Below are positions 7,771-35,432 of a DNA stretch of 41,634 bases, piece by piece. Made by a program: the position numbers and the translations under genes. The DNA is taken from the NCBI GenBank assembly GCA_964510285.1, contig CAZEAM010000373.1, positions 1-41,634 of the forward strand, read 5' to 3'. Position 1 is the stretch's first letter, and every line of letters starts with the position of its first letter. Under the pieces are notes generated by a model. It made no database searches. It was not told the DNA's origin and saw nothing but the letters and a program-made list of their open reading frames with translations. This stretch comes from an uncultured Frankiaceae bacterium (GTDB lineage Bacteria > Actinomycetota > Actinomycetes > JAFAQI01).

Positions 7771-9542
7771 CCCGCGACGGCGACGGATACGCCCCGATCG
7801 AGTCCTACGCCGCCATCGGCGACGGGCGCTCGGTCGCGCTGGTCAGCACCGACGGCCGGATCGACTGGTGGCCGGTGCCGGCGCTCGACGCCGCGCCCAC
7901 CTTCGCGGCCCTCCTCGATCCGGTTCGCGGCGGCTACATCGCACTCGAACCCGTGCAGCCCTACGAAACGACCCGCCGGTACCTGCCCGACACCAACGTC
8001 GTCGAGACGACGTTCACCACCGAGTCCGGCGAGGTGCGGATCACCGACTGCCTGCCCTACGGCCGCTCCGGCCGGCTGGCTTGGAGCGAGCTCGCCCGGC
8101 GCATCGAAGGGGTCACGGGCGAGGTCGAGATGCGATGGGAGGTCGTCCCCGGGACCCAGCTCGCCAGCGCCGAGCCGTGGATCGCCGAACGTCAGGACGC
8201 GCTGATCATCCGGGTCAGTGAGGACCAGCTCGTGCTGCGCCACTTCGACGTCGGCACGCCGACCTGCGACGGGCACCGCGCCTCGGCGACGTTCACCGCG
8301 GTCCCCGGTCACACCGCCCTGCTCGCCGTGATCGGCACCACCGACGCACCCGTCTTCCTCGCCGACCGCAAGGAGCTCGACGGCCATTTCCCGATCACCG
8401 AACGCCGCTGGCAGGAGTGGGCGTCGGCGATCGACTACGCCGGCCCGTGGGAGGAGGCGGTCCGCCGCTCCGCGCTCGCGTTGCGGATGCTGCAGTACGT
8501 GCCGACCGGTGCGGTGGCTGCAGCCCCGACCACCTCCTTGCCGGAGGTGGTCGGCGGCGAGAAGAACTGGGACTACCGGTTCATGTGGGTGCGCGACTGC
8601 GCGTTCACGATCGACGCGTTCCTGGCGTTGCGCCTGCACGACGAGGCGCAGGCCGCCGTCCAATGGATGCTCGGCGCGCTGCGCCGTACCGAGCCCAGCC
8701 TGCACGTGTTCTACCGGCTCGACGGCTCACCGTCCGACGGCACGATCGATCTTCCCGACGTACCGGGGTACCGGCACAGCGCTCCGGTGCGGTCGGGAAA
8801 CCTCGCGGCGAGCCAGCAACAGCTCGGAACGTTCGGTGACCTGTTCGACATGATCTGGCAGTACGTCGACGATGGGCACTGCCTCGATCCGAAGACCGCC
8901 CGGCTGCTCACCGAGTTCGCCGACCGATGCTGTGACATCTGGCGGCGCAAGGACTCCGGAATCTGGGAGCTGTCCACCGAGCGGCACTACACGATCTCCA
9001 AGATCGGCTGCTGGACCGCGCTCGACCGTGCCGTCCGGCTGCACGATGCGGGCCAGATCCCGAGTGACCACATCGGCCGCTGGAAGTACGAACGCGACGC
9101 CATCCGGGCCTGGGTGGACGAGCACTGCTGGTCACCGGAGCGATCCTGCTACACCGGCTTCGCCGGCGGCGACGGCCTCGACGCCGCCACGTTGCTGATG
9201 GCGCGTACCGGCTTCGACCGCGGCGAGCGCCTCGCCGGCACGGTGGCGGCAATCCGCAAGGAGCTGTGCGACGGCCCGGTCGTGCGCCGCTACAGCGGCA
9301 CGGACGACGGCGGCGGGTTCATCGCGTGCAGCTTCTGGCTGGTGCACGCCCTCGTGCTGCTCGGCGATCTGGAGGAGGCCCGGATGCTGATGGACGAGGC
9401 CGTCGCGTTGACCAACGATGTCGGCCTGCTCGCCGAGATGATGGACGCGTCGACCGGGACGATGCTGGGCAACTTCCCGCAAGGGCTCAGTCACCTCGCG
9501 CTGATCAACGCGGCATGCGCTTACAGCCGCGCCGCCGGCTGA
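7767..9542 (+). CDS. Glycoside hydrolase family 15 (glucoamylase/trehalase-like)
   Basis: GTG at 7767 overlaps the SDR stop (GTGA). Motifs: YAPIESYAAIGDGRSVALVSTDGRIDWW, EKNWDYRFMWVRDCAF. C-terminal (alpha/alpha)6-type motifs end in GNFPQGLSHLALINAA. Confidence 0.9.
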   Translation: MTRDGDGYAPIESYAAIGDGRSVALVSTDGRIDWWPVPALDAAPTFAALLDPVRGGYIALEPVQPYETTRRYLPDTNVVETTFTTESGEVRITDCLPYGRSGRLAWSELARRIEGVTGEVEMRWEVVPGTQLASAEPWIAERQDALIIRVSEDQLVLRHFDVGTPTCDGHRASATFTAVPGHTALLAVIGTTDAPVFLADRKELDGHFPITERRWQEWASAIDYAGPWEEAVRRSALALRMLQYVPTGAVAAAPTTSLPEVVGGEKNWDYRFMWVRDCAFTIDAFLALRLHDEAQAAVQWMLGALRRTEPSLHVFYRLDGSPSDGTIDLPDVPGYRHSAPVRSGNLAASQQQLGTFGDLFDMIWQYVDDGHCLDPKTARLLTEFADRCCDIWRRKDSGIWELSTERHYTISKIGCWTALDRAVRLHDAGQIPSDHIGRWKYERDAIRAWVDEHCWSPERSCYTGFAGGDGLDAATLLMARTGFDRGERLAGTVAAIRKELCDGPVVRRYSGTDDGGGFIACSFWLVHALVLLGDLEEARMLMDEAVALTNDVGLLAEMMDASTGTMLGNFPQGLSHLALINAACAYSRAAG

Positions 9543-10255
9543 CTGCGGGCCGAGAGCATCGTGCGTAGCCGGCGAGCGTCCCTGACCGCTGCGCCTCCCG
9601 GATCGTTGTTGGCATAGACGTAGCCGGTCGCGGCCGGGCCGAGCTCGGTGACCCATCGCGCGAGGTCGCGGTCGTCGTATCCCCAGTCCACGCGGCCGTG
9701 GTGAAGCCGCAGGTAGGTCCAGTCCGCGGTGCGCCACAGCGGGCCCAGGCTGCGTCCGCCCCGATCCGCCCACACCATCGCCGCCCCGCGGTCGGTGAGC
9801 ATCCGGCGCAGGTCCTCGGTGAACCACGACTCGTGCCGGGGTTCGACCGCGACGCGCACGTCGGGCGGGAAAGCGGCCAACGTCTGGTCGAGCCGGCCCA
9901 GCTCCGCCTGCAGGTCCGGTGGCAGCTGCACGAGCACCGGCCCCAGCAGGCCGCGGCTGCGCAGTGGCGAGAGCACCCCCATCAGGCGTTGCACCGGCTC
10001 GGCCGGCTCGCGCAAGCGCTTGATGTGCGTCAGGTAGCGGCTGGCCTTCATCGCCATGACGAAGCCGTCCGGCACGGTCTCGGCCCAGCGCTGCACCGTG
10101 TCGAGCTTGGGCAGCCGGTAGAAGCTCGAGTTGACCTCAACGGTGTCGAAGGACTCGGCGTACGCCGACAGCCACAGCCGTTGCGGGAGCTTCGGAGGGT
10201 AGAAGCCGCCGCGCCAGTCGGCGTACTGCCATCCGCTGGTCCCGACCCGGATCAC
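9521..10255 (-). CDS. DUF72 family protein
   Basis: GTG at 10255 overlaps the upstream stop (GTGA). The N-terminus VIRVGTSGWQYADWRGGFYP is the DUF72 hallmark. The rest of the 334-aa track ORF is shadow. Confidence 0.85.
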   Translation of the reverse strand: MIRVGTSGWQYADWRGGFYPPKLPQRLWLSAYAESFDTVEVNSSFYRLPKLDTVQRWAETVPDGFVMAMKASRYLTHIKRLREPAEPVQRLMGVLSPLRSRGLLGPVLVQLPPDLQAELGRLDQTLAAFPPDVRVAVEPRHESWFTEDLRRMLTDRGAAMVWADRGGRSLGPLWRTADWTYLRLHHGRVDWGYDDRDLARWVTELGPAATGYVYANNDPGGAAVRDARRLRTMLSARSQPAARL

Positions 10256-28443: not shown

Positions 28444-28501
28444 GCGGAGGGCGTGGGATTCGAACCCACGATGCGAGTCACCCCGCATAGCGGTTTTCAA
28501 G
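28444..28501 (-). repeat. Partial (3' half) tRNA-Ser copy, the distal att repeat of the islet
   Basis: 30/30 nt are identical to 35343-35372. A 12-nt divergent block follows, then 16/16 nt identical to 35385-35400. Identity ends at the anticodon loop. The 5' continuation cannot pair as an anticodon stem and no GGAGGGC acceptor strand is present. Confidence 0.85.
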
Positions 28502-28607
28502 TTCGCTGTTCGCGCCGCTCTGACCTGGCAGGCTCAATGTCTCCGCAGGTCAGCGGCCCGCGCCGTTGTCCGCTGTCCACCGCTGGCGACCGATGCGTGC
28601 CACTGCT

Positions 28608-28634: not shown

Positions 28635-29201
28635 TCAGGCGTTTTCAGGTGCAAGCCGTCGCACGGCCTCGACGAACCCCGAGACTCCGCAACGCTCCAA
28701 CCGACTCAGTAGGCCCGCCAGATCGGATGGGGGGTGAGCCATGTCCGCAGCCTGCTGCTGCATCACCTCTAGTGCAACGCTCGGACGTAGGTCTAGCTGG
28801 TCGAGCAGGAACTCGTCTGGATGGCGCGCTTCGACGCCAGAGGGCATCAGAGCATGATCCGGAAAGTGCTTGAGGTTGAAGGTCACTATCGCCTGACCGC
28901 CACCCGCGATGGCGGCGGCGAGGACATGCCTGTCGTCTGGGTCTGGAAGATCCAAGCCGGCGGTGACGGCCTGCCACCCGCTGACGCTCGCGTCATCGAA
29001 CGCAGAATTCATTGCGTCGAGCCGACGCTGGATTCGCTCCTCGGGGATGTCCGTGTGAATGCGCATGACGGCGTAACGGACTTCGTCGAGGATCCGATCC
29101 GACCACAGTGGCCGGAAGAATCCCGCCTCGGCCATCCGCAACAGCGTGTCGCAGAGTGCGTTCGGAACGAGCACGCAGGCATCGAGGACAGCGGCGTACA
29201 T
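28635..29201 (-). CDS. PIN-domain protein (type II toxin candidate)
   Basis: 188 aa. Motifs: MYAAVLDACVLV (first acidic residue), DRILDEV, LPDPDDRHVLAAAIAGG, IVTFNLKHF. The start lies 2 nt after the upstream stop. Confidence 0.85.
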   Translation of the reverse strand: MYAAVLDACVLVPNALCDTLLRMAEAGFFRPLWSDRILDEVRYAVMRIHTDIPEERIQRRLDAMNSAFDDASVSGWQAVTAGLDLPDPDDRHVLAAAIAGGGQAIVTFNLKHFPDHALMPSGVEARHPDEFLLDQLDLRPSVALEVMQQQAADMAHPPSDLAGLLSRLERCGVSGFVEAVRRLAPENA

Positions 29202-29203
29202 CG

Positions 29204-29689
29204 CTACGCGTGCTTCGCGCGACCCTCTGCCAACGCCGCCTGGAATTCCTCTGGCGATGCGTCGTAGAGACCGAGGTCCTGGGCGTCCTGGGTCAGCTCC
29301 CGGAGCACCTGACGCTGCTCGTCCCGGCGAAGCGCCTGGAACGCCAACAGGTCGCTAAGGCGTATACGCCGATGCCGACTCGGCGTCTCGAAAGGGATCT
29401 TTCCCGCTTCAAGGAGCTTGATGAGCGTGGGCCGGCTGATGCCCAACAGGTCCGCCGCTTCCTGGGTGGTCAGCCGCTGACTGAGCGGGGCGAGAGTGAC
29501 TGCCTGCCCGCGGCGCATCGCGGTAACAACCGTCGCCAGCAGCCCCCGCAGCTCGCTGGGCAGTTGGACTGACCTCCCTGAGGCACCGGTGAGCGCGACA
29601 GGCTCGTCGTCCGCCAGAACCGCCTGGGCAGCCTCAAGTGACTCGACATCATGCGACGGGAGAACCGTCTGCTCTCGAACTGCGCTCAT
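29204..29689 (-). CDS. Excisionase-family (HTH_17/MerR-like) DNA-binding protein, antitoxin candidate
   Basis: 161 aa. The HTH reads LTTQEAADLLGISRPTLIKLLEAGKIPFETPSRHRRIRLSDLLAF. It sits immediately upstream of the PIN gene. Confidence 0.8.
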   Translation of the reverse strand: MSAVREQTVLPSHDVESLEAAQAVLADDEPVALTGASGRSVQLPSELRGLLATVVTAMRRGQAVTLAPLSQRLTTQEAADLLGISRPTLIKLLEAGKIPFETPSRHRRIRLSDLLAFQALRRDEQRQVLRELTQDAQDLGLYDASPEEFQAALAEGRAKHA

Positions 29690-29949: not shown

Positions 29950-30408
29950 ATGCGCGTTCTGGGCGTGCAGTGCACGACAAAGCACGCCTTCCTAACGGTG
30001 GTTGAAGAAGGCAGCGTCATCCCCGCTGGACCGCAGCGCCTCGCGGCCGCGCAATCCATGGACGAGGATCACGCCCTATGGGGCACCCTCGCCACCTTTG
30101 GCGAGGCGCTGGACGAGGTGAAGCCGGACCGCATCGCGCTGCTTCTCCCGGGGACCGGCGAGAACTCCAAGGGACCGCATAGCGCATGGGCGCCGCGCAT
30201 CGAGCTCGAGACCTTGCTTCGGATGGCCGCCGCCCAGCGCGACCTCCCGGTATCCCGCCTGGCTAGAGCCACGGTGCTAGCGAGGCTTGGGCTGCCTCGT
30301 AAGGGCAAGTTCGAGGAACTCGTCAAGCCAGTGTCACAGCCAGTCGGCGACTACTGGGCCGCTGGACGCTTGCTCGCTGCAGCTGCCGCGATCGCCGAGG
30401 CGAACTGA
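29950..30408 (+). CDS. Hypothetical 152-aa protein, translationally coupled to the kinase
   Basis: ATG at 29950 lies 11 nt after GGAGG (the track ORF starts at GTG 29893). The stop TGA overlaps the kinase ATG (TGATG). The N-terminus MRVLGVQCTTKHAFLTVVEEG is loosely RNase H-fold-like. No family assigned. Confidence 0.6.
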   Translation: MRVLGVQCTTKHAFLTVVEEGSVIPAGPQRLAAAQSMDEDHALWGTLATFGEALDEVKPDRIALLLPGTGENSKGPHSAWAPRIELETLLRMAAAQRDLPVSRLARATVLARLGLPRKGKFEELVKPVSQPVGDYWAAGRLLAAAAAIAEAN

Positions 30409-31523
30409 TGCCGCTGCACGGGGAGGGGGCCCGTAAGACGTACGTCGGGCACCGTGAGATCGCGAACAGCGTATGGGTCGCTCGGCACGAGATCCTCGGC
30501 GAGAACTGCATCCAGAAGACGTACGCGCCGGCGGGCCGCGAAGACGCCATCGCCTTTGCTGAGCCGCGGCTCTTGAACGACCTAGATCACCCGCACATCA
30601 CGCCTCTGCGCGAGGCACAGTTCGATCCGCACAGGTCGGGCCACGTGACGTTGGTCATGCCCGTCTACGAGGGCGGCAGTATTCACGACGCCATCTCAGC
30701 CGACGGCCACCGATTCTCAATCGGCGAGGCGGTCACAATCCTCCAAGACATCGCGGGAGCTCTTGCCTACCTACACGTGACGAAGGGCTACGTCCACCGT
30801 GACCTCAAGCCGAAGAATGTCCTGTTGGACCTTGCTCGGCAGCGCGGCTACCTCGCAGACTTCGGCTCCGCCGCCAGGCTGGATGCCACGACATCGACCG
30901 CGCAGGCAGTGCGAACGACCGCGCTCTACCAGGCCCCGGAAGCGGCAGCAACCGGCCGCGTGGGCATGGAAGCAGACATCTATGCCCTTGGCCTGACTGC
31001 ATTCGAGATGTTGAACGGGCTGTTCCCCTACGAGGAACTGGACGCGGCGGACGTAGACCGGCGGATCAATGCCGGCCGCCGGTCACTGCCGGATCGACTG
31101 CTTGCGCCCGCAGCGTTCGCGCCGCACGTCCCAGACCAGCTGCGGCGACTCATCAGGAGCATGATCGACGCACGGCCAGCGGCGAGGCCGACAGCCATGC
31201 AGTTGCTCCGTCAACTGCGGGCGTTGAAATGCGTCGACTGGCGTCACGCAGATGGACCCGGGCTTGACGGTTCCTGGCGTGGAGGATGGCCGCCGCGGCA
31301 GCGACCGGAGCGACAGACGGAACTCCTCGTGACATCACGGCTACTTGCGGCCGGACGTGACCGGGGAAAGCGCAGGGTTGAGGCCCGCTATCGCACCGCG
31401 ACGAGCGGCGGTTGGCGCACAGTGGGGGTGGGGCCCTCGACATGCGGACGCCAGGACGCCGCCGCAGTCTCCGCGTTTTTCAGCGCCGTCGACGCCCACG
31501 TAGCCAAGCGTTGGCCGGCATAG
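30408..31523 (+). CDS. Soluble Hanks-type Ser/Thr protein kinase with an unassigned C-terminal tail of about 95 aa
   Basis: 371 aa. Motifs: CIQK (subdomain II Lys), AEPRLLNDLDHPHI (III), VHRDLKPKN (VIb), ADFGSA (VII), YQAPEA (VIII), DIYALGLTAFEML (IX), DARPAARPT (XI). The Gly-rich loop is degenerate (VGHREIANSV). No TM segment. Confidence 0.9.
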   Translation: MPLHGEGARKTYVGHREIANSVWVARHEILGENCIQKTYAPAGREDAIAFAEPRLLNDLDHPHITPLREAQFDPHRSGHVTLVMPVYEGGSIHDAISADGHRFSIGEAVTILQDIAGALAYLHVTKGYVHRDLKPKNVLLDLARQRGYLADFGSAARLDATTSTAQAVRTTALYQAPEAAATGRVGMEADIYALGLTAFEMLNGLFPYEELDAADVDRRINAGRRSLPDRLLAPAAFAPHVPDQLRRLIRSMIDARPAARPTAMQLLRQLRALKCVDWRHADGPGLDGSWRGGWPPRQRPERQTELLVTSRLLAAGRDRGKRRVEARYRTATSGGWRTVGVGPSTCGRQDAAAVSAFFSAVDAHVAKRWPA

Positions 31524-31873
31524 GTCAAGACGCCAGCTGTTTCCGGCGGCAATGCAAACAACTCGCGACGCGCCAGTGCAGCGGCAGAGGTGTCGACAAC
31601 CCATCGCGCGGTGTAACCCGCGCCTTCAATCGCCATGAAGCCGTCGAGCGCCAGGTTGCCTAGTACGGCCTCCACGCCCGGAACCGCACGGTAAGTGTCC
31701 GGATCCGGGAAGCCCTCGGCGGTCACATCGAGTGGCAGCCCTAGTCGGGCGGCTTCGGTAACCGCCATTAGGACAGCCCGGTGCACCGGCCAGCTGACGC
31801 CGACGGGTAGCGCTTCCACGGCTCCAGCTGCGATGATCGTACGGATCAGATAATCCATACGTTCTCGATACAT
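31388..31873 (-). CDS. Hypothetical 161-aa protein
   Basis: The only protein-like frame across 31524-31873, with amphipathic patterns such as VLGNLALDGFMAIEGAGYTARWVVD. GC3 is about 66% by hand count. It overlaps the kinase 3' end by 136 nt in the frame that shares wobble columns, so the overlapping part could be shadow sequence. Confidence 0.5.
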   Translation of the reverse strand: MYRERMDYLIRTIIAAGAVEALPVGVSWPVHRAVLMAVTEAARLGLPLDVTAEGFPDPDTYRAVPGVEAVLGNLALDGFMAIEGAGYTARWVVDTSAAALARRELFALPPETAGVLTYAGQRLATWASTALKNAETAAASWRPHVEGPTPTVRQPPLVAVR

Positions 31874-31905
31874 ATGTTGAACCTACTTCTCGTTTGGGCG
31901 GCGCC

Positions 31906-32235
31906 ATGCCAGACACTCCGGTCGCGGCGGATCAGCTGATTCGCGAGACGCCGCAAAAGCAGGCTGCGATCGCGTGGCCGCTACCCATCGACGAGCGACT
32001 CGACCAGTTGCTCCAACAAGCTGACGCTGCAGGGGAGAACACAACTCGCAAGGAGCTCGCCGCAGCCGTGATCGCAACAACGAGCCTCACCGATGCTCAA
32101 CTCGGCAAGATGCTGCGGCAGTACAGGACGATGCGGGTCGCGGAACTACTTGTCGCCCCTACCGGGTCCAACGTGATCTCAATCAGCCGGAAGAAGCCTG
32201 GCCGGCGGACAAGCGTCCAACGTCAGGACACCTAA
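31906..32235 (+). CDS. Hypothetical 109-aa protein
   Basis: ATG at 31906 (the track ORF starts at TTG 31894). Helical-looking sequence: IAWPLPIDERLDQLLQQADAAGENTTRKELAAAVIATTSLTDAQLGKMLRQY. No family recognised. Confidence 0.5.
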   Translation: MPDTPVAADQLIRETPQKQAAIAWPLPIDERLDQLLQQADAAGENTTRKELAAAVIATTSLTDAQLGKMLRQYRTMRVAELLVAPTGSNVISISRKKPGRRTSVQRQDT

Positions 32236-32254: not shown

Positions 32255-32428
32255 CTACCCTCGCACCCGGCCAGCGGCTATGAAGGCGTCGAGGTCTGAC
32301 CGGTGGATCCGGACGTACTTGCCGATCTTGTGGAAGGGGATGCGGCGTTCTTGCACGAGCCGGCGAACGAAGCGCACCGGCGTGCCCAACTCGGTGGCGG
32401 CCTGTTCTACGGAGAGGAGAGGGGACAT
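32255..32428 (-). CDS. Excisionase-family HTH protein (xis-like)
   Basis: ATG at 32428 lies 5 nt after GGAGG. Sequence: MSPLLSVEQAATELGTPVRFVRRLVQERRIPFHKIGKYVRIHRSDLDAFI. Confidence 0.8.
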   Translation of the reverse strand: MSPLLSVEQAATELGTPVRFVRRLVQERRIPFHKIGKYVRIHRSDLDAFIAAGRVRG

Positions 32429-32668
32429 CCGGACCTCCAAGGGCGTTGAGGAAGGTCCAAAGGCTCGCCGAAGTGCGCACCAGAAACGTCACCGCGCCAC
32501 GGGCGTGAGCGACGGGAACTTGTGCCCACCGTCGGGTCTCACGCCGCGGCGTCGCCAGGGCTAACTCGACGGCCCCGTCTAGTCCGCCGCGATCTCCGTC
32601 CGCCCACCTCCCACGCGCCGCGCGCTGCCGAACAACCCGCACCACCAAGCGCACACACTTGTCTCTCC

Positions 32669-33075: not shown

Positions 33076-33144
33076 CCACAGATCGCGCACCACACCCGGA
33101 GATCGGGCGCAGAGGTGCGACGGTCGCACTCCGGGAGGTGTGGC

Positions 33145-34257
33145 ATGGGCCGGCGCGTGTTCGGGAGCATTCGACTGCTCCCCTCCGGTCGATACCAGGC
33201 GAGGTATCCGGGTCCGGACGGCCGGCTCCGCGCGGCACCGCAGACCTTCGAGACCAAGGCCGACGCGTCTCAGTTTCTGTCGGGCGTCGAGACCGACATG
33301 CTCCGAGGGCAATGGAACGACCCGCGAGCGGGAGCCACATCACTTCGCCTCTACGCCGACGCCTGGCTGGCGGAGCGGCGAGTGAAAGGTCGACCGATGG
33401 CGCCGCGCACGCGCGACACGTACCGGCACAGCCTCGACGCGTGGATCCTGCCGACGCTCGGCGATCTGCCTCTGACGAAGATCACTCCAGCCGTTGTCCG
33501 CAAGTGGCACGCAGAGACAAGTGCTGCAACCGGCGTGACAGCAACGCGCCAGGCCTACGCCCTACTGCGGGCGATCCTGAACACGGCTATCGCCGACGAC
33601 CTGATCCTCCGCAACCCGTGTCGCATCCGCGGCGCCGGGCAGCCGCACAGCCCGGAGCGACCGCTGGCCGACCTCGAGACTGTCACCAAGCTCGTCGATG
33701 CGATGCCGGCACATCTCCGGTGCCTCGTGATCGTCGCGTTCTGGGCGCACGCGCGCCTCGGTGAACTGCTCGGACTGCAACGCGGGGATGTCGACCTCAC
33801 TGCCGGAACGATCCGCATCGAGCGCCAGGTCGTCGAGGTCGACGACATCGGTCCTGTGGTCACCGAGCCAAAGGTCGGCAGCCGTCGTCTCGTGCATCTG
33901 CCGGAACCGGCAGTCGATGCCCTGCGCGAACACTTGCTGCAACGAGGCCCTGCGCTCCCGACCGCGCGGATCTTCACGCGCCCTAACGGCGGCGAGCTTC
34001 GAGCCCACCACGTGCATCACGCCTGGCAGGCGGCGCGCAAGAAGGTCGGCGTCGAGGAACTGCACTTTCACGATCTGCGGCACGCGGGCCTGACGCTTTC
34101 CGCTCAGACTGGCGCCACTTTGGCCGAGGTGATGCGCCGCGCAGGCCACGTGTCGTCCGCTGCAGCGATCAGGTACCAACACGCGGCCGACAAGCGAGAT
34201 GCGGAGATCGCGCGCCGGATGTCAGCCGTCGCAAGGAGCCGCGGTCGGGACGGTTAG
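33145..34257 (+). CDS. int: Tyrosine recombinase / phage-type integrase
   Basis: ATG at 33145 lies 7 nt after GGGAGG. The N-terminal arm-binding/SAM-like region reads FGSIRLLPSGRYQARY...YADAWLAERR. Catalytic motifs: AHARLGELLGL (Arg), HFHDLRHAG (HxxR), AAAIRYQH (Tyr). Confidence 0.95.
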   Translation: MGRRVFGSIRLLPSGRYQARYPGPDGRLRAAPQTFETKADASQFLSGVETDMLRGQWNDPRAGATSLRLYADAWLAERRVKGRPMAPRTRDTYRHSLDAWILPTLGDLPLTKITPAVVRKWHAETSAATGVTATRQAYALLRAILNTAIADDLILRNPCRIRGAGQPHSPERPLADLETVTKLVDAMPAHLRCLVIVAFWAHARLGELLGLQRGDVDLTAGTIRIERQVVEVDDIGPVVTEPKVGSRRLVHLPEPAVDALREHLLQRGPALPTARIFTRPNGGELRAHHVHHAWQAARKKVGVEELHFHDLRHAGLTLSAQTGATLAEVMRRAGHVSSAAAIRYQHAADKRDAEIARRMSAVARSRGRDG

Positions 34258-35276
34258 CCGCTAGTCCATTCGAACCCAGTGGTGTCGGCGAGCGTCGCCG
34301 AAACCGGCCGCGCGTCCTCCGACGCCCACCGCCGGGCAGGCTCAAGCTCACCGCCCACGGGGCCCCGAAGCACCACACGCTCGCCGGACGGCCACAACGA
34401 CACGAGCGCGGTGACGTGTCCCGAAATCGCGCCAACCCAGCCCCACACGACGCTGCGTTGCCCTGCCCGCTTGCGCAACTTTTCGCCAACCTGCGGCGCC
34501 TCCAGGATGCGAGCTTTGTCACCCGCCGTAGGGACGATCCAACGCCCGCTGTTGAGCAGCACCGGCGGGAGGTCGCCGTTTGGATCGCTGACGCGGCTGG
34601 TCAAGTCATCGCCGACGTACACGCTGGACCAACCCCCACCACGGTTCAGGTAGACGTAGCTCACCGACCGTTCGAGAATCCCGTCGTCCTGGTTCACGAC
34701 AAGGCCGGAGCGAGCCACTTCGACTCGAGCAAAGGTCCCGTCGGAGACGTGCCACGACAAGCGCCGCTTCCAAGGCACGGCCTCTTCGGCGCCGGTCACC
34801 GGGTCAAACAGGATCGGCCGGCGTCCGCGCTCGCCGCCAGCCCACCACCGTTCGAGGAAGGCAGCGGACTGCGGCCGTACACCCTCTGGAGCGTCATGGC
34901 GCGTCCACTCACTGCCGTCGTACAGCCAGAGATGGTCATCGCCGAGCGCTACGCCTCGGCCGTCGCGAAGCATCTGTGCGCCGCGGCGGTTCGTGCCCGG
35001 CAGCGATGGCAGAGCAGGCTCGGCGGCGGTAGGCGAGAGGCGGACCCCAGATGGATGTTGGTCGATAACCAGGCCCTCGACGTCGAGGAACCGGCCGTAC
35101 GCAGGGTGCTCGACCGGAAGCTCGTAGGGCAGCGCCGCGACTTCGACTGTGCCCGCGTCGGTCACGCGCGCAAGTGACAGGTGCCCACCATCGTTCAGCA
35201 GTAGGACCGGCTCGAGGACCACGGACGTAGCCTCTCGCGCCAGCACCGATAAGTCGGAATGGCACGCGAATGGCAC
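34254..35276 (-). CDS. Hypothetical 340-aa protein (beta-rich), islet cargo next to the tRNA
   Basis: Long ORF with high GC3 and no recognisable motifs. The longest-ORF GTG start (35276) lies inside the arm-type repeat. GTG 35222, 8 nt after GAGAGG, is a plausible alternative start. Confidence 0.6.
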   Translation of the reverse strand: MPFACHSDLSVLAREATSVVLEPVLLLNDGGHLSLARVTDAGTVEVAALPYELPVEHPAYGRFLDVEGLVIDQHPSGVRLSPTAAEPALPSLPGTNRRGAQMLRDGRGVALGDDHLWLYDGSEWTRHDAPEGVRPQSAAFLERWWAGGERGRRPILFDPVTGAEEAVPWKRRLSWHVSDGTFARVEVARSGLVVNQDDGILERSVSYVYLNRGGGWSSVYVGDDLTSRVSDPNGDLPPVLLNSGRWIVPTAGDKARILEAPQVGEKLRKRAGQRSVVWGWVGAISGHVTALVSLWPSGERVVLRGPVGGELEPARRWASEDARPVSATLADTTGFEWTSG

Positions 35277-35277: not shown

Positions 35278-35343
35278 AGGCAACGGCTGGCAGAGGTCGA
35301 TGGCGGTTGATTCGTCGCGTTAGCAGGTGAAACCGCAGGTCAG

Positions 35344-35432
35344 CGGAGGGCGTGGGATTCGAACCCACGATGACGCTTCCGCGCCATAGCGGTTTTCAAG
35401 ACCGCCGCCATCGTCCACTAGGCGAGCCCTCC
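35344..35432 (-). tRNA. tRNA-Ser (anticodon UGA)
   Basis: Hand fold: acceptor GGAGGGC/GCCCTCC, anticodon stem GCGGT/ACCGC with loop CTTGAAA, long variable arm ATGGCGC-GGAA-GCGTCAT, T arm GTGGG-TTCGAAT-CCCAC, discriminator G. CCA is not encoded. Confidence 0.9.

Follow-up and report, generated by a model that had tools for sequence, protein, structure and literature searches.

To our knowledge, only a few kinase-based immune systems of bacteria have been described, little is known of how such kinases sense infection, and the Actinomycetota are under-sampled for defence systems. Two of the described cases, Stk2 of Staphylococcus epidermidis and PD-T4-6 of Escherichia coli, are reportedly single-gene abortive-infection systems based on a Hanks-type kinase, the former said to come from work of Depardieu in 2016 and the latter from work of Vassallo in 2022. 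Here we analyse a cassette of four genes, designated A, K, C and D, located at positions 29950-32235 of the window (the whole 41,634-nt contig CAZEAM010000373.1 of an uncultured Frankiaceae bacterium). Gene K encodes a Hanks-type Ser/Thr kinase predicted to be soluble, and gene A, immediately upstream, a small protein with a predicted RuvC fold. Literature searches returned no description of the A-K-C-D gene set and, as far as these searches and the libraries tried show, the cassette is so far undescribed.

The cassette resembles Stk2 and PD-T4-6 in having a soluble eukaryotic-like Ser/Thr kinase, in being accessory or mobile cargo, and in that the kinase is the proposed shutdown effector. On the contrary, Stk2 and PD-T4-6 are single genes, whereas K is accompanied by A with its RuvC fold, by the convergent gene C that overlaps it and by the small basic protein D; K also differs from them in its unique C-terminal domain and in the lack of a canonical Gly-rich loop, and its similarity to them is that generic to Hanks-type kinases. 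In the compact HipBST and HipBA units, a kinase toxin is found together with a DNA-binding regulator and with a small partner encoded by its own gene, and they share with the cassette a small upstream gene coupled through its stop codon to the start of the next one. However, HipA and HipT are HipA-fold kinases and HipS resembles a HipA subdomain, whereas K is of the Hanks type, with no match to the HipA models of Pfam, and A is RuvC-like. MADS and the type 2 Pgl/BREX systems also contain a Hanks-type kinase, but their MAD6 and PglW proteins are much larger multidomain proteins than K. Among published systems, the closest in logic is the tripartite kinase-kinase-phosphatase (KKP) system of Pf prophages, reported both as a toxin-antitoxin (TA) system and as a phage defence (10.1101/2022.09.05.506569), which is likewise a multi-gene, mobile-element-borne system with a phosphorylation-based logic. 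KKP consists of two kinases and a phosphatase antitoxin in Gram-negative bacteria, whereas the cassette has one kinase and partners of unrelated folds; an assignment to KKP was rejected, as no phosphatase domain was present in A, C, D or the neighbouring genes.

Searches of K against the PADLOC library gave mad6 as the best match (E = 1.6e-49), together with PD-T4-6 (E = 1.2e-38), both restricted to the kinase domain. The kinase domain of Mycobacterium tuberculosis PknB, whose sequence was checked against 1mru, was used as a control and scored far better on the same library (7e-179 on PD-T4-6 and 2e-86 on mad6). PknB is an essential housekeeping kinase, and the PADLOC matches of K therefore say only that it is a Hanks kinase. 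Since the PADLOC-DB models PDLC04039-04064 (PD-T4-6) and PDLC04138 (mad6) match PknB, any Hanks kinase would be flagged by them; as a practical warning, matches to these two systems are no evidence of defence. The NCBIfam scores of K were far under the cut-offs for MAD6 (96.9 vs 460 bits), PglW (54 vs 990) and PknB-PASTA (99.5 vs 450). An assignment of K to PD-T4-6 was rejected, as housekeeping PknB outscores it and K does not stand alone but has A and C on either side in 14 of 14 lineages. The same applied to MAD6, given its low score and the absence of other MAD genes, with only generic matches of excisionase-type helix-turn-helix (HTH) proteins to mad1, and to PglW, given its score and the lack of PglX, PglY and PglZ neighbours. 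Scans of the window with the family libraries revealed no TerY-P-like phosphatase, HipA fold, methyltransferase or PglXYZ, in agreement with the original prediction, made from the sequence of the window, that neither the Pgl/BREX-2 partners nor TerY plus PP2C accompany the kinase.

The coupled genes A and K

Gene A (29950-30408, plus strand) encodes a 152-aa protein from an ATG at 29950 to a TGA at 30406-30408, and gene K (30408-31523, plus strand) a 371-aa kinase with its stop codon at 31521-31523. Both genes share the A of the TGATG sequence at 30406-30410, which confirms the position predicted for this overlap. The 1-nt TGATG junction was found in 13 of 17 homologous loci, with short overlaps or gaps in the remaining ones, and A is tightly coupled to K at this stop/start junction. 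Such an arrangement matches the layout of type II TA systems, in which a small gene overlaps or abuts a larger enzyme gene within one operon. Comparison of homologous loci revealed that the A start, MRVLGV, is conserved and preceded by a Shine-Dalgarno-like GGAG, and that nothing else is conserved upstream of A; a longer GTG-initiated open reading frame (ORF) from 29893 was rejected as the A start because it is not conserved in the homologues. The unit includes two further conserved genes, C and D, which moves its right boundary from 31523 to 32235. The feature is therefore real and extends from 29950 to 32235, and the two-gene module first proposed has to be replaced by a unit of four genes with a conserved convergent overlap.

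The AlphaFold2 model of A, built from 28 sequences, showed a predicted local distance difference test score (pLDDT) of 88 and a predicted template modelling (TM) score of 0.84, with the secondary-structure order beta-beta-beta-alpha-beta-alpha-beta-alpha. In Foldseek searches against the PDB, the best 12 matches of this model were all RuvC (E from 1.6e-8 to 2.9e-6), with TM-scores of 0.63-0.75 against the RuvC proteins of E. coli, Thermus, Deinococcus and Pseudomonas and of 0.75 against that of E. coli (1hjr); they were followed by RuvX/YqgF and by other RNase-H-like and ASKHA proteins. RuvC has the same order of secondary-structure elements, and an N-terminal L-G-[VI]-x strand motif is common to both. 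At the sequence level, the hhalign comparison of A with E. coli RuvC (query identical in sequence to 1hjr) was weak, with 23 residues aligned and a probability of 1.3%, so the fold assignment rests on the AlphaFold2 model and Foldseek. No family in Pfam, PADLOC, PHROG or NCBIfam was found for A, and the RuvC models of Pfam and NCBIfam were unmatched at E ≤ 0.01. Altogether, A has a RuvC fold in its predicted structure. These results bear out the earlier suggestion of an RNase H-fold (RuvC/YqgF) protein with Gln in place of a catalytic Asp, and place A outside the known families of kinase substrates or regulators.

Equivalences between residues of A and RuvC were established from motifs and from position along the secondary structure, not by superposition. 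The catalytic acidic tetrad of RuvC (D7, E66, D138 and D141 in E. coli) is not kept in A. The first catalytic Asp position is occupied by Gln7 in the window protein and, among 113 family representatives, most commonly by Asn (44), Ser (22) or His (20), none of which is acidic. Glu68, directly past strand 4, is present in 85 of the 113 but is replaced by Gly68 in the clade of the window. Residues R83, E87, W136 and R140 are nearly invariant in the same representatives, and R140, placed by eye, opens the last helix, in the region that carries the C-terminal Asp pair in RuvC. In view of the missing acidic residue at the first catalytic position of the family, the nuclease activity of A has probably been lost.

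The kinase K was matched by Pfam PF00069 (Pkinase) over residues 46-268 with 127.9 bits (cut-off 31.7), and the Pfam scan revealed no second domain. Its residues 1-270 (30408-31217) comprise an N-terminal MPLxGE...TY segment and the Hanks-type kinase domain, the Gly-rich loop of which is degenerate. The catalytic signatures are invariant in 38 homologues: K37 (CIQK), E52 (AEPRLL), H130-R131-D132, K134, N137, D151 (DFG) and P177-E178 (APE). In the same 38 sequences, M1, G5, E6 and Y12 of the N-terminal segment (residues 1-12, 30408-30443), ahead of the kinase domain, are also invariant, so the extreme N-terminus of K may be either a functional peptide or a region constrained by the A/K junction. 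The GxGxxG loop was found in no family member among the 38 homologues, and K of the window clade shows an additional 5-residue deletion in this already degenerate loop. No hydrophobic segment was detected (maximum 19-residue Kyte-Doolittle mean, 1.17), and neither a transmembrane segment nor a PASTA or FHA domain was found with Pfam and the hydropathy profile. By its sequence, K is thus a soluble Hanks-type kinase that keeps every catalytic residue of an active kinase.

The C-terminal part of K (residues 271-371 plus the stop codon, 31218-31523) is a family-specific, Trp-rich and very basic domain, with a pI of 11.4 vs 9.5 for the whole protein. W278, W290, G292, W294, G316, R337, D350 and F358 are conserved in 12 of 12 aligned lineages. 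This tail had no Pfam match and no PDB sequence match; profile searches against the PDB with the tail, as well as with A, C and D, gave only chance-level matches (ParD2, Vipp1, Mnd1 and a coat protein). The main traits ascribed to K by the original prediction, namely intact catalytic signatures, a degenerate Gly-rich loop, a soluble kinase devoid of transmembrane, PASTA or FHA regions and an unassigned C-terminal tail, are confirmed; the signatures, the loop and the tail, measured here as 101 aa, are shared by the whole family. The K family is sharply delimited, with some 54 homologues at E ≤ 1e-71, almost all of them 368-376 aa long, and generic kinases starting at E ≥ 1e-36.

Some additional variation was observed in this pair of genes. 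In the window clade, residues 67-72 of A (30150-30165) lie in the sequence LLLPGTG, in which the change of Glu68 to Gly makes a Gly-rich loop, whereas other clades have LLLPE. In the same clade, five Gly-loop residues of K are lost within residues 17-26 (30456-30485), where other clades have PGG/EG. The gain of the loop in A and the deletion in K amount to one evolutionary event, with intermediates (P0013/P0068), and so give a mere hint of coupling between A and K. Synonymous conservation is also raised in codons 1-90 of K (0.45-0.49).

Conservation of the four-gene unit

Co-occurrence of A and K outside the window had been named beforehand as a test of their association, and the pair was recovered, together with C, in 14 of 14 independent complete lineages; partial contigs were consistent with this. 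Six lineages are represented by a single locus (the window, L009, L019, L020, L026 and L031), and the others by more than one locus identifier (L001-3, L004/13, L005/6, L007/8, L010-12, L015/16, L023/24 and L029/30). Ten of the 14 lineages also have gene D, and A and K are adjacent at every locus recovered, with K proteins only about 30-45% identical across the lineages. A has 35 close homologues, and a profile search of 1.84 billion cluster representatives gave 222 at E ≤ 1e-3. For four distant members of the A family (down to E = 2.7e-11), a kinase was found directly downstream in all four cases; in three of them it is a 362-374-aa kinase ending in the conserved tail, with an antisense C homologue overlapping its 3' end, and the fourth is on a contig of 1 kb, which breaks off within the kinase. 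These data indicate joint inheritance of A, K, C and D across unrelated genomic contexts.

Scans of sequence collections recovered 2 loci only, with a narrow search pattern, in the contigs of one genome for each of 185,579 species, and only 7 short cassette loci in metagenome contigs. No A homologue was found in the viral contigs of IMG/VR, tblastn with the window A gave no match in 72,556 plasmids or 50,697 phage records, and tblastn with a distant A (P0200) gave none in plasmids. The A protein of L007 did match, by tblastn, plasmids of Curtobacterium. Three 108-kb plasmids of Curtobacterium flaccumfaciens pv. poinsettiae (NZ_CP106880.1, NZ_CP104931.1 and NZ_OR592517.1) provide a cultured and tractable source of the cassette. 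On NZ_CP106880.1 it lies at about 64.9-67.2 kb (locus L031), with A as WP_262140213.1 ('hypothetical protein') and K as WP_111040467.1; hidden Markov model searches located C at 8487-8966 (minus strand) and D at 8976-9302 (plus strand) of this locus. Both are missing from the PLSDB gene table, which lists a 67-aa minus-strand 'hypothetical protein' inside D, and this table may be incomplete. Two rearranged copies were also observed: a scrambled remnant of A and K in a metagenome-assembled genome of Acidimicrobiales (L014, 5983-6460), and a 606-aa product joining the kinase to transposase domains (P0080; PF01609/PF05598), which suggests insertion of an insertion sequence.

The neighbourhoods of the cassette differ among lineages. 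In L005, on a 949-kb contig, it is preceded by a complete QatABCD system (matches with E from 1e-23 to 1e-136) and followed by a GmrSD-type IV enzyme and a ribbon-helix-helix/PIN pair. In L029/30, AbiLi/AbiLii lie directly upstream, with a DrmD-like SNF2 helicase and an MmeI-type methylase beyond them, and an integrase fragment lies downstream. Abi_C and AAA_16/TPR (STAND-like) proteins accompany the cassette in L020, and a TrwC relaxase, two integrases and an AbiEii fragment in L010. Other neighbours include ParA, SSB, an Eco57I-type methylase, ThiF and a resolvase (L009), an integrase directly upstream (L004), TniQ/AAA (Tn7-like) genes and a RES toxin (L031), and a Gp49/HTH_3 pair, DUF5131 and RHS (L001); L007, L015, L019 and L028 have housekeeping or unassigned neighbours only. 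Placement beside validated defence systems thus recurs in independent lineages (L005, L029, L010 and L020), and in at least two lineages with strong matches the cassette is inside defence islands. Such varied and largely mobile or defence-linked contexts indicate that the cassette is accessory, mobile cargo, and they agree with the prediction that it would not sit in one conserved housekeeping context.

The third gene, C (31388-31873, minus strand), encodes a 161-aa acidic protein and is convergent with K, with an overlap of their 3' ends of 136 nt (31388-31523, both strands) that takes in the last 136 nt of K. The stop codon of C lies inside K in every lineage examined (14). In ten lineages the overlap measures 133-142 nt; it is shorter in the Curtobacterium plasmid (106 nt) and shortest in the three lineages of greatest divergence (73-82 nt). 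In the window, the third codon positions of both frames coincide. When kinase pairs of less than 62% identity were compared, the share of identical amino acids of K that were also encoded by the same codon was 0.29 in the adjacent part of the tail vs 0.44-0.48 in the overlap. In addition, K-synonymous third-position differences were also C-synonymous in 57% of informative cases, and in 73% within the core overlap, vs a control value of 36% for the same antisense frame in the remainder of K (Fisher p = 0.0025, only suggestive since the pairs are non-independent). Conservation of C itself peaks in the overlap (0.74 vs 0.49-0.55 elsewhere). These sequence comparisons are suggestive of selection on both frames of the overlap. 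Part of the constraint could be a by-product of that acting on K itself, as the stop codon of C uses the codon for the conserved Tyr328 of K. A long convergent overlap of two coding genes kept over deep divergence is rare, and makes the locus useful for the study of antisense control and dual-coding constraint.

Gene C has 41 database homologues, all of them without annotation, and its codon-position GC content is coding-like (0.51 at position 2). The AlphaFold2 model of C (pLDDT 89) combines an N-terminal region of mixed alpha/beta structure with a C-terminal helix of 35 residues. Foldseek searches with this model revealed nothing significant in the PDB (best E ≥ 0.13) or BFVD (best E 0.027). 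The weak PDB matches include winged-helix eS10, MarR, ArsR-type and AspA proteins, a weak winged-HTH signal to Mnd1 was seen twice (E 0.16-0.23), and a SocA/Panacea-like antitoxin was matched below significance (E 0.73). With a pI of 5.3, C is acidic, which is unusual for a DNA binder. Gene D (31894-32235, plus strand) encodes a small basic protein of 113 aa (pI 9.7) and diverges from C, beginning 20 nt beyond the C ORF when the full-length ORFs are considered. It contains a W-P...G-x-x-[ST]-R-[KS]-[ED] motif (G-x-x-T-R-K-E in the window) that appears Arc-like by eye alone; no Pfam or PDB match was obtained, and the hhalign comparison with Arc was not significant (probability 0.6%). Neither C nor D belongs to any family in Pfam, PADLOC, PHROGs or NCBIfam.

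The position of D is always filled by a small protein, which in distant cassettes is of another, recognisably DNA-binding fold. It corresponds to a MazE/AbrB-type protein in L015 (6997-7239; Pfam 26.8 bits vs a cut-off of 24.7) and to a MarR-like protein in L020 (5628-5948; 23.7 vs 27). Non-orthologous replacement of regulators is common in TA and defence operons. The L010 locus has a true D homologue upstream of C and on the same strand as it (9448-9720). Alignment of the C/D spacer from 7 loci revealed an AT-rich block at 31856-31885 of the window with the consensus CATACGTAT..AAAACATAT.TTTATCCTA. The alignment suggests that C starts at the ATG at 31858, which would give a protein of 156 aa, and D at the ATG at 31906 (109 aa), leaving a spacer of 47 nt that presumably acts as a shared promoter/operator. 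No match to the sigma-70 consensus and no inverted repeat common to all loci were detected in the spacer, and no sigma-70-like promoter or convincing terminator was found between the cassette genes. Leaderless back-to-back promoters for C and D would be a reasonable inference for actinobacteria.

Possible roles of the cassette

Taking gene neighbourhood and co-inheritance together, we infer that A-K-C-D may be a kinase-based conflict system providing anti-phage or abortive-infection immunity and possibly doubling as an addiction module, the most likely reading, to which we give a probability of about 0.45. The original prediction had proposed a defence, abortive-infection or TA-like module; the neighbourhood and co-inheritance data favour it, and the function itself is deduced from the gene neighbourhood. 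According to this model, K would be the effector, and its release would lead to phosphorylation of proteins of the host or the invader and to an arrest of growth or replication. A, made at roughly a 1:1 ratio with K, would act as its sensor/adaptor or inhibitor, and may read branched phage or plasmid DNA through its old junction-binding surface, or else a phage protein. The acidic C (pI 5.3) may bind the basic tail of K (pI 11.4), the contacts being conjectural. C and D, or the DNA binders replacing D, would set expression of the cassette from the AT-rich spacer, and the obligatory 3' overlap of the K and C mRNAs would make the expression of both genes mutually antagonistic.

A more specific version of this model is doubtful. 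It proposes a four-component immune system in which the RuvC fold lacking the first catalytic Asp serves a Hanks kinase as sensor/adaptor, e.g. for branched replication or recombination intermediates, while K and C are restrained by the fixed antisense overlap. If it is true, the K/C overlap would be a hard-wired sense/antisense switch kept across divergence to about 30% identity, and the pairing of such a fold with a kinase suggests a sensor of nucleic-acid structure feeding a phosphorylation output. The gene set is compact and widespread in Actinomycetota (222 A clusters), and it escapes the models for defence systems and those of Pfam and NCBIfam that were applied.

Several observations weigh against a role in conflict. 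Such a role is derived from gene neighbourhood, and an association with defence genes was observed in only about 5 of the 14 contexts, a sample of 14 lineages with no statistical background. Some copies have housekeeping surroundings, with gyrA/DUF3566 next to L015, a WhiB/PBP region around L028 and an ECF sigma factor beside L007. The cassette contains no nuclease, NADase or membrane effector that could be recognised. The degenerate Gly-rich loop, further shortened in the window clade, makes weak or altered ATP use by K possible. Truncated kinases were found in four copies (L022, L025, L027 and L028), with stops at profile positions 28-259 in some of them, and would fit either a costly toxin or a dispensable gene. 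Furthermore, all protein-protein contacts within the cassette are conjectural, and little confidence attaches to the folds assigned to C, with Foldseek matches at E > 0.01 only, and to D, for which hhalign gave no significant match.

The alternative that survives best, which we consider possible although rather unlikely, is that the cassette is primarily a TA or addiction module stabilising its carrier elements, with K as the toxin, A or C as the antitoxin and D, with or without C, as an autoregulator, following a HipBST- or KKP-like logic. Type II TA operons classically have a small gene that overlaps the beginning of a larger one for an enzyme, as in the A/K pair, and carriers of the cassette include an integrative islet, plasmids and regions resembling integrative and conjugative elements. 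The complementary charges of C and the K tail, the MazE/AbrB-type protein above the Pfam cut-off at the D position of L015 and the truncated kinases, expected of a toxin that is costly once unguarded, would also fit this alternative. However, A has no DNA-binding or disordered region of the kind found in antitoxins, being a well-folded RuvC-like domain conserved as strongly as K, and four conserved genes with a conserved overlap exceed the needs of a simple TA system. In addition, the copies located beside Qat/GmrSD or AbiL/DISARM genes, on large chromosomal contigs, show a placement typical of defence islands and not of plasmid maintenance. An addiction role and a role in conflict are compatible.

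It is less likely that the cassette is a regulatory module of mobile elements with no immune role, in which C and D form a bistable CI/Cro-like switch and A-K modifies proteins for excision, transfer or host physiology. The divergent arrangement of C and D on the conserved 47-nt AT-rich spacer, the DNA-binding-type proteins at the D position and the location of the window cassette beside xis and int genes would agree with this proposal, and KKP shows that mobile-element kinases can regulate prophage activity (10.1101/2022.09.05.506569). Against it, no recombinase, relaxase or replication gene was visible within 8 kb of the cassette in L001, L005, L007, L015 and L019, and no A homologue was found in the 50,697 phage records or IMG/VR. 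With differing elements around the cassette, or none visible, it cannot be tied to the life cycle of one element.

An ordinary actinobacterial housekeeping Ser/Thr-kinase signalling pair, present on the islet by chance, is a very improbable explanation. Generic kinase models do match K, and actinobacteria encode many Hanks kinases. On the other hand, the context differs in every lineage, a sharp gap separates the K family (E ≤ 1e-71) from other kinases (E ≥ 1e-36), only 2 loci were found, with a narrow search pattern, in the genomes representing 185,579 species, K has no transmembrane, PASTA or FHA region, and the GC content of the islet is below that of its flanks. Least probable of all is that K simply belongs to one of the catalogued kinase defence systems (PD-T4-6, MADS MAD6 or Pgl PglW) and that its neighbours are irrelevant, as its PADLOC matches to mad6 and PD-T4-6 and its partial NCBIfam matches to MAD6 and PglW are limited to the kinase domain, PknB scores better, the NCBIfam scores are under the cut-offs and K is never solitary.

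The tRNA-Ser islet of the window

In the window, the cassette lies on an islet of 6.9 kb at a tRNA-Ser gene, in line with the integrative element of about 7 kb that had been predicted. The tRNA-Ser(tga) gene (35343-35432, minus strand), identified with ARAGORN and Rfam, contains the right copy of a direct repeat in its 3' part (35343-35405), and the left copy, at 28444-28506, is a displaced 3' part of tRNA-Ser. This repeat has 63 nt with 83% identity, the first 30 nt being identical, and a spacing of 6899 nt; tRNA was the only Rfam family found near the cassette. The islet contains, in addition to A, K, C and D, genes for a PIN protein, its HTH_17 partner, an excisionase-type HTH protein, a tyrosine integrase and a 340-aa ORF. 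The excisionase-type HTH_17 gene (32255-32440, minus strand; PF12728, 1.2e-14; TIGR01764, 57.7 bits, above cut-off) and the integrase gene (33115-34257, plus strand; PF00589, 3.5e-19, with N-terminal SAM-like domains) lie outside the cassette.

The PIN/HTH_17 TA-like pair (28635-29689, minus strand) consists of a PIN gene (28635-29201; PF13470; RSP_2648-family model NF046100 with 145.7 bits, below the cut-off of 170) and, upstream of it, a gene for a 161-aa HTH_17/excisionase-type partner (29204-29689). The original prediction had counted the proximity of a TA pair towards the resemblance to conflict systems, which did not hold, as the PIN/HTH pair is absent from all other cassette loci. The integrase is likewise not linked to the cassette elsewhere, with one weak integrase-family match at other loci. 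The 340-aa ORF (34254-35276, minus strand) occupies the interval between the integrase and tRNA-Ser genes, its 3' end overlapping the integrase stop by 4 nt. It had no match in Pfam, PADLOC, PHROGs or NCBIfam and no homologue at other cassette loci, and its codon-position GC content is coding-like (0.74/0.53/0.77). The GC content is 0.62-0.69 inside the islet vs 0.70-0.75 in its flanks.

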